Assembly: GCA_016839705.1 (NCBI GenBank) | Contig: JAEOTR010000027.1 | Span: 1-26,094, forward strand | DNA length: 26,094 nucleotides | Source: Promethearchaeota archaeon | Lineage (GTDB): Archaea; Asgardarchaeota; Lokiarchaeia; Sigyniarchaeales; SOKP01 | Direction of reading: 5' to 3' | Shown: positions 3,831-10,200 of the stretch, in pieces | Numbering within the stretch: the stretch's first letter is position 1 | Layout: every line of letters begins with the position of its first letter | Position numbers and translations under genes: made by a program | The notes under the pieces: generated by a model | The model's database searches: none | What the model was told of the DNA's origin: nothing | What the model saw: the letters and a program-made list of their open reading frames with translations, nothing else

Positions 3831-4625
3831 ATGGATGTTGAATTGTTAATCATTGGAAATGAAATTTTAATAGGAAAAACGCTAGATAGTAATTCAAATT
3901 GGATGGCAAAAAGGGTTACTCGATATGGTCATAGATTAAGAAGAATTACAACAGTGGGAGATGACTTGGAAATCATTTCTAGTGCACTACAAGAAATTAT
4001 AAAACGAAAACCAGATATAATTATAACTTCAGGTGGCCTAGGTCCAACTTTTGATGATATGACTTTAGAGGGCATAGCAATGGGTTTAAATAGGAAATTA
4101 GAACTAAATAAACACGCCTTATCTTCTATTAAGAAAGTATATAAGCACGCTTACGATAGGGGAATTTTAAAGCTTGAGGGGATGACAAAAGAACGAGAAA
4201 AAATGGCTTATCTTCCCCAGGGTTCCATACCTTTACCAAATACTATAGGGACTGCACCAGGGGTCAAAATTAATGAGGGAGATATACGGCTATATATTTT
4301 ACCGGGAGTACCTACAGAATTAAAATCAATGTTTAGAAATGTGATATTGCCCATTTTGAAAGAGAGACAGGGAAAATTCATAGAAAAGGGATTCCTGTTT
4401 TCTGGAATTGGAGAAAGCCAGATTGCTCCTTATACTGGTGAATTGGAAAAAAAGTATCCGCAATTGTGGATTAAGACTCATCCACACATTGGCCTATCCG
4501 TTGAGGTTGAGATTTCTATAACAGCTTTTAATGTGGAGAATGGAGAAGAACTGGTTGATAAAGTTTTAGATGAAATAAAAGAGATAATTTTAAACCTAAA
4601 AGGTGAAATTATTAATAGAGAATAA
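3831..4625 (+). CDS. CinA-like molybdopterin-binding-fold protein (COG1058, ADP-ribose/FAD pyrophosphatase-like), no NMN deamidase domain
   Basis: IIGNEILIGKTLDSNS, SGGLGPTFDDMT, GTAPG, LPGVPTEL and GIGESQIA motifs. Confidence 0.88.
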   Translation: MDVELLIIGNEILIGKTLDSNSNWMAKRVTRYGHRLRRITTVGDDLEIISSALQEIIKRKPDIIITSGGLGPTFDDMTLEGIAMGLNRKLELNKHALSSIKKVYKHAYDRGILKLEGMTKEREKMAYLPQGSIPLPNTIGTAPGVKINEGDIRLYILPGVPTELKSMFRNVILPILKERQGKFIEKGFLFSGIGESQIAPYTGELEKKYPQLWIKTHPHIGLSVEVEISITAFNVENGEELVDKVLDEIKEIILNLKGEIINRE

Positions 4626-4644
4626 TTATTTATTAAATTCATAT

Positions 4645-4713
4645 CTCCAAATTCCCTTGCTAGGAAGTCATTTTGCGACTATCATTTCTTCACAAAATTC
4701 ATACGTTTTGGAG
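4645..4713 (-). promoter_or_regulatory. SECIS-like element in the 3' UTR of selD copy 1
   Basis: Minus-strand RNA directly after the stop: CUCCAAA-ACGU-AUGA-AUUUUGUGA-AGAAAUGAUAG-UCGCAAAAU-GA-C-UUCCU-AGCAA-GGGAA-UUUGGAG. Helix I 7 bp, AUGA/GA core, helix II 9 bp, A-rich apical loop. Confidence 0.85.
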
Positions 4714-5742
4714 TTATAGTTTGGTAATTTCTATATTTTCTACGTTCTCTGAAATTCTCACAAGACCAGGAGAAACTGCATCAATTGTGCCTAGGATCCA
4801 ATTCGAAATTCCATTATCCGAAAGAATATTAGAAAATTCCTCTGCTTTTAAAGGTTCTATGGCCATAAGCATACCACCCGCTGTCTCAGCACATTTACAT
4901 TCATCAAAATCATAACCTAAATCTTTTGATAAACGATCAGAGAGTTTAATTGATGGTATCGTTTCAATAATCGCTGATAAATTAGAGTTCTGGAGAATTT
5001 CAGATAGATGCCCTGCTAGACCGAAACCTGTAATATCTGTCATAGCATGAATAAATGAAAAATTATCGAAAGAGTGAATTGTTTTCACAACATCCTGGTT
5101 TGGAGTAGTCATTATCTTTATTGCTAGATCAATTGATTTTTTTAGTTGGTTTTTGGAATAAGCTTCAAGCATCTCAGGAAAGTCTTTTAATAATCTATAT
5201 GCTGCCATAACAGGTTGAATTCCGATTGGTTTAGTTAATATCAGTCTATCACCTTTTTTCACTCCTTGTTTTCTAATTATCGCATCCTTATGAACAAATC
5301 CAGAAGCTTCACCACCTATTAATGGCCACTCCGAGTATATTGTATGACCTCCCACTACTTTAGAATGAATCTTCTTTTCCATATAATATTTGATTCCCGC
5401 TAAAATTCCTTCAGCAACCTCCATTGGAGTGTTAGTACTTATTCCTAAAAAGATTAGCATCCCCGAGATGTCCGGAACATTCATTGCAAAAATGTCGTTT
5501 GTTACATTGCACGCGGCTATTTGTCCCATTACTTCGGGTTCATCAACAATGGGGGTAAAGATATCCAAATTTTTTACTTGAACTATATCAGTATTAGGAA
5601 CATGCACAATAGCAGCATCTTCAATATCTCCAGCTAACCCAGTTTTCTCAAGCAAATCATTTAATTCATTAGAGCCAAGTTTACATGATCAACCGAAAAT
5701 CTTTACTTGTTTCGTTAACCTATACTCTATTTTTTTAGGCAT
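4714..5742 (-). CDS. selD: Selenide, water dikinase (selenophosphate synthetase), selenocysteine-containing, copy 1 (342 aa)
   Basis: ATG 5742 after GAGGTGA reads MPKKIEYRLTKQVKIFG-U(TGA 5691-5689)-SCKLG, in frame with ORF 4714..5655. Motifs EDAA, DIFTP, NVTND, GGHT, TDITGFGL, ETAGG. Confidence 0.93.
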
Positions 5743-5744
5743 AC

Positions 5745-5751
5745 TCACCTC
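5745..5751 (-). promoter_or_regulatory. Shine-Dalgarno site of selD copy 1
   Basis: GAGGTGA just upstream of ATG 5742. Confidence 0.7.
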
Positions 5752-5977
5752 ACTTTTGCATAAATTTCTTTTTTATTAAAATAGTAAGCGTTTTCTTAAT
5801 TAATTTAAAATATTAAGCAAGCAAAAAAATTGTGTTTATTTATTAAAATTTTCGATTTAATTTATCGAAGAAATAGATAAGTCTCATTAATTGTCTTAAT
5901 TAAGGTGTACATTAAATTAAAGCAGTATAAATCTAAATCAAAAAATGAGAGAAAACTAAAATTTCTAGCAAATTATA

Positions 5978-6049
5978 CGATGCCGCCTTGCAACGGATTT
6001 CTCAATAAGCGTCCGCATTGCTGCATTTTTGCTTATTTCATTGACATCG
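5978..6049 (-). promoter_or_regulatory. SECIS-like element in the 3' UTR of selD copy 2
   Basis: Minus-strand RNA directly after the stop: CGAUG-UCA-AUGA-AAUAAGC-AAAAAU-GCA-GCAA-UGC-GGAC-GCUUAUU-GA-GAAAU-CCGUU-GCAA-GGCGG-CAUCG. AUGA/GA core, perfect 7-bp helix II, apical A-run with mini-stem, closing helix I. Confidence 0.85.
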
Positions 6050-7081
6050 TTAGATATTTGTTATTTCAATATATTCAACATCATCAGAGATGCGAATATT
6101 CTTAGGTTTTTTAATGTTATCGATTGTACCAACAATCCAATTAGAGATATCGTTCTTGGTTAATTTTTCTGAAAATTCTTCTGCTTGTCTATGATCAACG
6201 GAGATAAGCATACCTCCCGCAGTTTCTGGCATTTCAGCTGTATCAAATTTATAACCGAATTCATACGCTAATTCTTGTGTAAGTCTAATAATAGGTATCC
6301 TATCAAGAATGGCTGAAAGTTTAGAATTTTGAAGCATTTCTTTCAGATGTCCAGCTAAACCAAATCCGGAAACGTCGGTCATTGAGTGTATGAAATGCAC
6401 ATTTGGATACGAATGGATTGTTTTTACAACATCTTGAAGCGGTGTGGTCATAAGGTTAATTGCGGTTTCAATGGAAATATCAAGTTCTTTTGATGAAAAG
6501 CTTTCCAACAGAGCGGGGTTGTTTTTTTGTAGACGATATGCTGCCATAATGGCTTGATTGCCAACTGGCTTAGTTAGGATTAATTTATCTCCTAATTCAA
6601 CATAATTTTTCCGTATTATCTTGCTTTTCTCAACGAATCCAGATGCTTCACCACCTATCAACGGCCATTCGGAGTATATTGTATGACCCCCTAAGACTTT
6701 GGAATTTATTTTATGTTCCATGAAATTTTTAATTCCACGAAGTATGCCTTCTGAAACATAAGTTGGCATGTTCTTCTTGATCCCAAGGAAAACGAGCATA
6801 CCGGAAATTTCAAGAACATTCAAAGCAAAGACATCATTTGTAACATTAGCAGCAGCAATCTCTCCCACTATCTCTGGCTCATCTAAGATTGGTGTGAATA
6901 TGTCAAGGTTCTTTACCATGACAAGGTCGGTATTAGGCACAGGAATTACCGCAGAATCTTCAATATCTCCTTTCAAACCAACTCTAGATAAAAGGTTCTC
7001 TAGCTTTTTCGCTTCAACTTTACAATTTCAACCAAATAGTTTCGTTTGGAGCGTCAATCGATAACTCTCTAACTCTTGCAT
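6050..7081 (-). CDS. selD: Selenide, water dikinase (selenophosphate synthetase), selenocysteine-containing, copy 2 (343 aa)
   Basis: ATG 7081 after GAGGTGA reads MQELESYRLTLQTKLFG-U(TGA 7030-7028)-NCKVE, in frame with ORF 6050..6976. Motifs EDSA, DIFTP, NVTND, GGHT, TDVSGFGL, PETAGG. Confidence 0.93.
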
Positions 7082-7084
7082 CCT

Positions 7085-7091
7085 TCACCTC
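7085..7091 (-). promoter_or_regulatory. Shine-Dalgarno site of selD copy 2
   Basis: GAGGTGA just upstream of ATG 7081. Confidence 0.7.
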
Positions 7092-7221
7092 AAATCTGTT
7101 TTTTTCTTCTTATATTAGTAGGTATAAATATAAAATGCGAATATATTAATTTTTTCTATATAATTTATTTAAAAAATGAATAAAGCTAAGAAAAAAAGTA
7201 AGAAAATTTGTTATAAAAAAT

Positions 7222-10200
7222 TTATGGTAAAAATATTTCAATATGCTTGGTTGTCTTTCTCATATTATCGTACTGGTCTCTATAGAACAATTCTAATTTA
7301 ATTTCATCGGCAGTAGGGTCAAATAAATTCTTTTTAAGTTCTTCTTGCTTATCAACTTTTAACACATAATTAAATTTAAAAGATGTTCCAGGTTTTAATT
7401 CGTTTAGCTGGAGATATTTTGGAAAGCTTTCTTTTCTTTGTAGATTAACGTAAGTAGGTACTTTTAAAGAAATCTGAAAGTCTCTAAAATCAAAATTTGA
7501 AGGATTAGTAAGTTTACAATTTAGATATATGTCATTTCCAATGGTTTTTATATTCTTGAAAAAGGATACTTCTTTTGAATCTATGATCTCAGATTCAAGT
7601 TCTTGATAATACAGTTTATCATTTATGATTTTAGCATTTAATTTTTTTTTGTTGATAAATCTAAGAACTAATTCCTTTATTTGCTCTTTTTCTAAATCAA
7701 GATAGGATGAGAGTAATTCAAATTTAATAGGATTAATAATTCTCCTATAATATTTAATCTGGTTAAGATGGAGTTTATTCTCACTTTTCCGAACGAAATT
7801 ATTTAACCTATTTATCAATAATTCTTTTGAAGCATTAAATTTGTTAATATAAGGTCTTACGTATAAATTGAATATATTATTATCTTCTAAAACCTTCTCT
7901 TTCCCAATAACATTTTCTATTTGTATTTCAGTCTCTTCTATGTAATTTTGGATTTGTGTAGAATTTAGTTTAATTAATTTCTTCACATCTGAGAATTCAT
8001 TTTTTTTAATTAGAAATTCTAATTTCGAAGTTAATGAACTAAAGTTATCATTTAATTTCTTAATACCTTCAATCCTCTCAGTTATAATAGATTGGATATG
8101 GCCTTGTAATAATTGAAATCTTAGTTCATTATTCATGCCTGCAATTCCAAGCTCGTTGGAGAGTTTACTAACCTGCCCACTCTGAAAAACTTGACCAACT
8201 AAACTATCTTTAATAGTTTTAATCTGTCGATCTAAATTAATCAAGTATTCTTGAATTTCAATTTTAGTTGAGACCCATTTTCTTAGTAGATCTTTAAAAA
8301 GTTCGTCAAATTCCACATTGATTACTAATAATTCTCTTATTTCTCCATCCAACTGGAATGTCTTTTTTCTTATTTGAGTTATATAAGCGAATTTTTCATT
8401 TTCTTCATCATCTTCATCCTGTTCAGAGATTTCTGAATCTACATCCATTTTAAACTTATTTTCTTTTATATAATCAAACTCCGCTTTTAAAATACTAATA
8501 CGATTATCCAACAACTTAATTTCTTCTTGTAACTTGAATATAAATTCGTTTTTTTTCTCTTCACAGATTTCAGAGATAAAACTTTTTATGATACTCAATT
8601 CCTCAATAATTTGAACTTTAATATCCTCCCACTCTTCAATTAAATCAAATACTAATCTTTTATATTCAAATCTATTAATAACATTATCAAATTTTTTTAT
8701 TTTTATTAGAATCTTGCTATATTTTTTATTCAACTGAATTTCAGTATCATTAAACTTAAAATTGTTAATATATGAGTTTAATTTCTCTCTAAATTTTGCA
8801 GGTAATTTTTGAAATTCGAGCATTTTCTCATGAAATAATGCTAAATCATTATTAATCCTTTCAATAGTAGAATCGGTGTTTTTAAAATTTACTTTAATAT
8901 TCTCTAAAGTATAAAGGATTTCATTTTTAACTTCTGGATCTTTTTCAATCTGTAAAGATTTATTCAGTTCAATAATAATCCAAACTGCCATTTTATGATC
9001 TTTTAAAATAAAGCATATAAGGTTAAGCAAATTGATAGTTCTCTTTCTTTCACGCCAATATCGTGATTCTAATTGATATAAGATTCGAGTTATTTCATTT
9101 TCCATTTCTATTTGAAATTCCTCAAACAAACGTTTAAATACTAAGGAAATTCCCTCCCTAATTGTTTCAGATGGGTTTTCTAATTCTTCAAATAAATAGG
9201 GAAATATATTCGTAATATTTTTTTGACTGAGTTGATATAATGCATTTATTAGTGAATTTCTATAATATAATTGCTCAGTTTCTACTAAAGAATGCAATAA
9301 GTTCGCCCATATCTGATCAAAGTTATTTTCTGCTATATTGACGAGAGCTTCAATCACTTTTAATTGAATACGGTAATCTTTTTCCTTTAAGAGATTTATC
9401 AATTTTGGGATAATAGAGATAATTTCAGATGATTTTTCTTTACCAATCTCACCAAAAAGCCAAATTATTAATTCTTTAACCCTACTCTCTTCGTTATAGA
9501 GAAGGTTAAGAAGGATATAAAATAGTTTTTCTTTAGAGAGGAAATATGTACCATGAATTTTTAACAGTTCAGCAGCAGCTTTCGCAACGTCTTCATCTTC
9601 GTCTCTAAGATTAATAATAACCATTGACAATAATGGTTCTAAATTTTTTATTTTGGTGTAATCTTGATTTAATATCTTCTGAATAATTTTAATTACATTT
9701 AGTTTAACTTTCCAGTCATTATCCATTAATTTTTCCGTATATTCTACAATAATTTCGTGTAATTCCTCTACATCAATATGCAGTGATAAAATTAAATTTC
9801 CAATAATTTTTACTGTAAGTCTTCGTACTGTGGGATCTTGATCATATAATCTTGCCCGAATTTTGCCGATCAAATTTATAAATAGATTAGGTCTGAATAA
9901 ACTAATTTGATACAATATTTCTAACGTAACTAACCGTATCCAAGAATCTGAATCATTGATATAATGTTGAACGTATTTTACTGTTTTTAATGAAATTGAG
10001 GGAGACTTATCACAGATTAAGTTTAATAAACTAAAACATCTATAAAGGAGTTCAGTATCAGCATGATTTTGATATTTCTCGATAACGTTAAATATTTCTT
10101 CAGCGGCTTTTTCATTATAGCCATTTAGAATCAAGCTTTCAATTTTTTCAGTGTCTAAGGTTAGAGTTGTCAATGGTCTTGGAATTTTTCGGTTATTTTT

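Follow-up and report, generated by a model that had tools for sequence, protein, structure and literature searches.

SECIS elements of Asgard archaea have been described as close counterparts of the eukaryotic ones. LokiSECIS was presented as a eukaryote-like hairpin, with an SPS form that carries an extra apical stem (Mariotti et al. 2016, PMC4989117), and the Asgard eSECIS-like structures of types I and II were later given, below the core, an internal loop and a lower stem with no conserved nucleotides (Huang, Xiao and Zhang 2024, PMC11227280). In the available text of these papers, the models consist of core, upper stem and apical loop, and neither a helix that closes the core from below (here the C helix) nor a third arm appears. 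The available text of the second paper cites the k-junction paper solely for GA/AA pairing, and that of a 2026 review restates the published picture with no mention of an arm. Nor did we find the arm described in the accessible text, figures aside, of the literature on three-way-junction SECIS elements, on L7Ae and kink-turns in Asgard archaea, or in recent preprints. Eukaryotic SECIS elements (types I and II) resemble those of Asgard archaea in the RUGA/GA kink-turn core, helix II, apical adenines and optional ministem, but have a longer helix II and an open internal loop that is favoured by SBP2 (PMC1874613). SBP2 is published as absent from Asgard archaea, and how an archaeal SECIS in the 3' UTR is linked to UGA without it has been posed as a question (PMC11881835).

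We analysed 26,094 nucleotides of a Lokiarchaeia (Promethearchaeia) genome (contig JAEOTR010000027.1, positions 1 to 26,094; hereafter the window). Two selenophosphate synthetase genes lie in tandem on its minus strand: selD-a (6050..7081, 343 aa) and selD-b (4714..5742, 342 aa), each with AIRS/AIRS_C domains and selenocysteine (Sec) at codon 18 (TGA 7030-7028 and 5691-5689, respectively). The selD-a paralog, with its one TGA, is conserved throughout the genus. The tandem duplication (4714-7081) is common to most of the genus and to genus g28, and the Sec motif distinguishes the paralogs (G-U-S-C-K versus G-U-N-C-K). The source genome also codes for tRNA-Sec and an EFSec-like protein. An AUGA...GA SECIS core lies 3' of each selD and starts 7-12 nt past the stop codon. 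An Rfam search of the window returned no SECIS match. Both elements have the attributes of Asgard eSECIS-like structures, namely a Sec-UGA gene with the element near its stop, an AUGA + [G/A]A core, a stem of 7-15 bp, unpaired adenines and the type II ministem. They share the AUGA/GA core, helix II, apical adenines and 3'-UTR position with lokiSECIS, its SPS form and the eSECIS-like elements, and they represent two published Asgard classes: SECIS-a belongs to the SPS/type II form, and SECIS-b, with its 11-nt loop, to type I. As Sec signals these elements are thus known and eukaryote-like; what is apparently undescribed, in the published text available, is their third arm. Metatranscriptome contigs from one study overlap the selD coding sequence and do not reach the SECIS elements.

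SECIS-a follows selD-a (5978..6049, minus strand) and was aligned to 71 homologs of its family. Its kink-turn and helix II occupy 6000..6044. The core pairs AUGA 6041-6038 with GA 6003-6002, with tandem G-A pairs (G6039-A6038 with G6003-A6002) above a 3-nt bulge (6042-6040) and a C helix of 2 bp (U6044/C6043 with G6001/A6000). Helix II (6036-6031 with 6010-6005) leads to the apical adenines (6030-6026) and a ministem (6025-6022 with 6017-6014), so that the upper part reads as 7 bp, with the core-adjacent A-U included, then AAAAA and a 4-bp ministem. The third arm (5983..5996) is CCGUU-GCAA-GGCGG, 5 bp with a GCAA loop. It adjoins, without a gap, the 3' strand of helix I (5978..5982), whose 5' strand is 6045..6049 (pairing with 5982-5978). 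The single-sequence minimum free energy (MFE) fold of SECIS-a (z -1.33) did not yield the three-way junction, and its fold therefore rests on covariation and comparison.

SECIS-b (4645..4713, minus strand) follows selD-b and has 29 nt between its core motifs. Its kink-turn and helix II span 4667..4704, with the closing pair G4704-C4667, a bulge at 4703-4701, AUGA (4702-4699) facing GA (4669-4668) and tandem G-A pairs formed by G4700-A4699 with G4669-A4668. Helix II (4697-4690 with 4678-4671) belongs to an upper stem of 9 bp and is capped by an A-rich loop of 11 nt (4689-4679). The third arm (4652..4666) is UUCCU-AGCAA-GGGAA, 5 bp with an AGCAA loop, and again the 3' strand of helix I (4645..4651) adjoins it without a gap, its partner being 4707..4713 (pairing with 4651-4645). 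Here the three-way junction is itself the single-sequence MFE (z -2.95). Both side hairpins thus lie where the preliminary description had placed them, between the 3' GA of the core and the 3' strand of helix I.

Is the arm particular to these two elements? We assembled 210 distinct Asgard elements (135 selD, 22 vhuD, 5 prxL, and 48 of two further UGA-containing families). For locating them, only helix II and the published core were used. The sampling takes in the window's family, other orders of Lokiarchaeia and, from other classes, at least five families; in 16 the core was placed manually from the core motif, and four weak matches were left out. The arm descriptor fits 206 of the 210; among control windows moved 45-135 nt downstream the figure is 23-25 of 210, and among shuffles 27%. 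With a closing helix I required as well, 168 of 210 elements fit, against 6-13 of 210 shifted windows and 13% when the 5' strand was foreign. The MFE test gave the arm in 179 of 210 real elements, against 15-42% of dinucleotide shuffles; these shuffles, of 42 nt, are a lenient null, which is why the shifted-window and foreign-partner controls were added. By gene family, the arm is present on vhuD (21/22) and prxL (5/5) elements, including those of other Asgard classes, and also on vhuU and two further selenoprotein families. The comparison with other selenoprotein genes that the preliminary description proposed gives the same answer within the source genome, where all nine SECIS elements examined carry the arm: those of both selD genes, two hdrA-vhuD, vhuU and two prxL, and two further elements. 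The arm is, by sequence comparison, a general part of the Asgard SECIS, conserved over the Sec-using Asgard lineages sampled.

Covariation supports the arm as well. The 72 selD elements of the window's family were aligned with MAFFT; the window row of alignment A1 is missing its first 5 nt, and this concerns no more than a few cells of helix I. Pairing in the arm reaches 96.6%, two-sided changes are seen at every one of its five pairs, and none of 500 shuffles matched its score; no slid register came near it in this alignment. In a 29-element alignment of another class, probably Thorarchaeia to judge by its GUGA cores, it is 97.2% paired, and unconstrained RNAalifold recovered it in all three alignments. 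On the SelD tree of the window's family, the arm shows 15 joint compensatory branches against 1.2 expected, comparable to the accepted helix II (11 against 1.7), although the arm's count may be inflated by SECIS exchange between paralogs; in a single-copy class, the tree-aware count is 7 against 1.6. The two top-scoring alignment pairs by MI-APC are arm pairs, and the same analysis found no covariation of the arm loop with any other part of the RNA, as a tertiary or pseudoknot partner would show. Helix I covaries too; its 3' strand returns to a partner strand 5' of the core, so that the arm lies enclosed within it. The third arm that had been proposed from two sequences is therefore real, conserved and covarying.

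The junction differs from that first drawing, which had missed a short helix, itself covarying, that lies between core and arm and closes the kink-turn. In 208 of 210 elements, the nucleotide immediately 5' of the 3-nt bulge is paired to the one that follows the 3' GA, in all four Watson-Crick types (C-G 97, G-C 53, U-A 46 and A-U 5, with U-G 7). This first pair is 99% paired in the 3-nt register, against 21-60% in other registers, and shows 8 compensatory branches against 1.1 expected on the SelD tree. A second C-helix pair is present in 171 of 210. The C helix measures 1-4 bp in all, the bulge ends in A-U, and the arm is a hairpin of 3-6 bp that begins at a fixed 0-8 nt from the core GA; it adjoins helix I directly in 115 of 179 parsed folds and lies at most 1 nt away in 146 of 179. 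Comparison of the aligned elements indicates a core that forms a standard kink-turn, closed by a short C helix beneath it, with the three-way junction below. Standard kink-turns of the box C/D and U4 type, the sites of L7Ae and 15.5K, have the same 3-nt bulge, U at L3, tandem G-A/A-G pairs and Watson-Crick closing pair; the Asgard form departs from them in its C helix of only 1-4 bp, which ends in the three-way junction. In both window elements the 3b-3n pair is Watson-Crick, and kink-turns of this kind are predicted to kink only when protein is bound (PMC4382518).

The loop of the arm is conserved differently from what the window alone had suggested. GCAAGG, taken as a shared mark, is indeed present in both window elements, but family-wide it occurs in only 26 of 210, and its presence in both arms is largely coincidental and partly chance. 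In SECIS-a the GG supplies the two G-U wobble partners and is AA in most orthologs. A GNRA loop does not hold up as a conserved feature either, since of 26 homologous tetraloops only 9 fit GNRA and GCAC is the commonest, and many arms have loops of 3 or 5 nt. What is constant is G-Y: every element of the two alignments has the loop G (72/72 and 29/29), and a pyrimidine follows, giving loops of G-Y-N-N type.

We consider it probable, though by no means assured, that the Asgard SECIS works as a three-armed RNA, with arm and helix I as a scaffold, a kink-turn bound by L7Ae or L30e, and contacts to EFSec or the ribosome. The arm would stack coaxially on helix I, clamp the very short C helix and so hold the projecting helix II at a set angle. 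The closed kink-turn, with its U at L3, would be bound and kinked by a free-standing protein of the L7Ae family (L7Ae or L30e), which would thereby replace the reportedly absent SBP2; the apical adenines and the invariant arm-loop G would contact EFSec or the ribosome and lead to UGA recoding. PF01248 has just two matches in the source genome (93% complete), both short ORFs, of 125 and 137 codons, and the two proteins resemble L7Ae and L30e, names read from the sequences. L7Ae binds nearly any kink-turn, so binding alone would be no proof of a role. A human SECIS is bound by archaeal L7Ae at 35 nM, and loop closure favours Snu13-type binding, whereas SBP2 prefers an open loop (PMC1874613).

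Unlikely as the whole account, but deserving some weight, is a role of the arm mainly as a docking site: EFSec, the ribosome or a factor specific to Asgard archaea would read its G-Y loop, and the stem would just present that loop. This extends to all selenoprotein mRNAs the suggestion of the preliminary description that the arm could recruit SelB or another archaeal SECIS-binding factor. The invariant loop G and following pyrimidine, set on a stem whose sequence turns over freely, would fit such a role, as would the retention of the arm where helix I is weak. In the Sec-Sec family described below, the arm is present in 25 of 25 elements and a helix I containing G+C in none of the 25; stacking on helix I is therefore not universal, which leaves room for docking. 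The available text of Huang 2024 (PMC11227280) also notes an Asgard-specific hypothetical protein encoded near Sec machinery genes. Loop length and the remaining loop bases, however, vary widely. Docking is compatible with the three-armed scaffold that we favour and may be part of it.

It is very unlikely that the arm serves the mRNA 3' end, protecting or defining it through stability or termination, and is linked to the SECIS by position alone. Selenoprotein mRNAs often end soon after the SECIS, and by inspection U-rich tracts lie downstream of many elements. Yet the arm is enclosed by the covarying helix I at its fixed distance from the core GA, and the control windows farther 3' seldom contain such a hairpin. 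An intrinsic terminator was rejected: 4500-7300 contains no site where a G+C hairpin precedes a U run, the arm being followed by the helix I strand.

More doubtful still is a true k-junction, in which A1n would be followed at once by the arm as T helix, while the arm's 3' end would pair with the bases 5' of the bulge. The k-junctions of the TPP riboswitch and DUF-3268 (PMC4005666, PMC10573300) do share with the Asgard element the kink-turn architecture and a third helix on the non-bulged strand, 3' of A1n, and the alternative pairing is often possible as G-U in the window's family (67/72 and 54/72). That register, however, is Watson-Crick in only 6/72 and 36/72, against 67/72 and 69/72 for a C helix directly under the core, and the closing pair covaries across all families. 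On the Watson-Crick counts we reject the strict k-junction pairing; the Asgard third helix differs in that it branches below the closing C-helix pair and not after A1n, opposite the loop. Finally, that a GCAAGG or GNRA arm defines a selD-specific SECIS subclass and gives selD its own regulation, as the preliminary description suggested from the GCAAGG common to both selD copies and as the apical ministem that sets selD SECIS apart (PMC4989117) might encourage, is scarcely credible given the arm on the non-selD elements counted above, the rarity of GCAAGG and the fact that SECIS-b is itself a vhuD-type element.

The core of SECIS-b is identical at 29 of 35 positions to the vhuD SECIS core of the same genome, and its form is normally found on vhuD, vhuU and prxL; 74 of 78 parsed selD relatives have another form, nearly always the SPS type. 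The two arms of the window are therefore not copies of one selD element. The same replacement of an SPS by a type I SECIS that is seen at selD-b was observed at loci L214, L239, L267, L292, L084 and L086, and this recurrence suggests repeated SECIS exchange among selenoprotein genes. Some selD-b genes (L016, L020, L026 and L100) carry an arm in the style of selD-a, pointing to gene conversion between the 3' UTRs of the tandem paralogs.

With the structure corrected, L7Ae or L30e becomes a candidate binder, and the full RNA for reporter, binding and structural work is defined. A Lokiarchaeal vhuU SECIS, listed at -6.9 kcal/mol, was inactive in a Methanococcus reporter (PMC11881835). By our energies, hairpins of the core only range from -3.5 to -10.0 kcal/mol and whole elements from -10.8 to -27.8 kcal/mol; the listed value lies within the first range and outside the second, which hints at a construct without the arm. 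The three-armed form also alters the proposed path from archaeal to eukaryotic SECIS: relative to the eukaryotic element, the Asgard one has a third helix in addition (206/210), and its loop is narrowed by closure to a bulge of 3 nt (208/210). We offer only tentatively, as a possibility that we would sooner doubt than assert, that the pre-eukaryotic SECIS was three-armed, that plain L7Ae or L30e recognised its closed kink-turn, that the arm, through its invariant loop G, served in RNA as the bridge to EFSec or the ribosome for which eukaryotes use the extra domain of SBP2, that the eukaryotic form arose by arm loss and loop opening as SBP2 appeared, and that the failed Methanococcus reporter may have been an armless construct.

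The closing pair and arm also sharpen searches. In the source genome, adding them reduced 169 core-like matches to eight, six of which follow UGA-containing genes; three true elements were missed at that stringency. SECIS scanning of this genome brought out two selenoprotein families to add to the seven that have been published for Asgard archaea. The first, the Sec-Sec candidate P0004 (L101; ~155 aa, G000:C73:86757-87266, plus strand), has two in-frame TGA side by side, in a HAD-U-U motif, and an armed type I SECIS, lies near an ACR3-like permease and has no match in a Pfam search; its homologs occur in 132 of 161 genomes of the class, nearly all with two TGA. The second, P0005 (L102; ~307 aa, G000:C29:41635-42558, minus strand), has a single in-frame TGA in its N-terminal part; its type II SECIS is armed, and Pfam assigned the protein no family. 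Its homologs occur in 137 of 161 genomes of the class; the TGA is retained in the window's family and mostly missing from the matches of other families.

In some elements the SECIS overlaps its gene. In the vhuU SECIS of the source genome (G000:C70:36131, minus strand), the core is AUGA/AA and its UGA doubles as the stop codon, in agreement with published work; this element, too, has the arm, together with a strong helix I. In family f31 (L056-L080 and L113-L119), which probably belongs to Thorarchaeia, selD ends on the UGA of the core, and helix I and the C helix extend within the coding sequence. Several selD matches of other classes (L060, L067, L107-L112 and L214), as well as G233, contain additional in-frame stops within the gene or short insertions, which are possibly introns.
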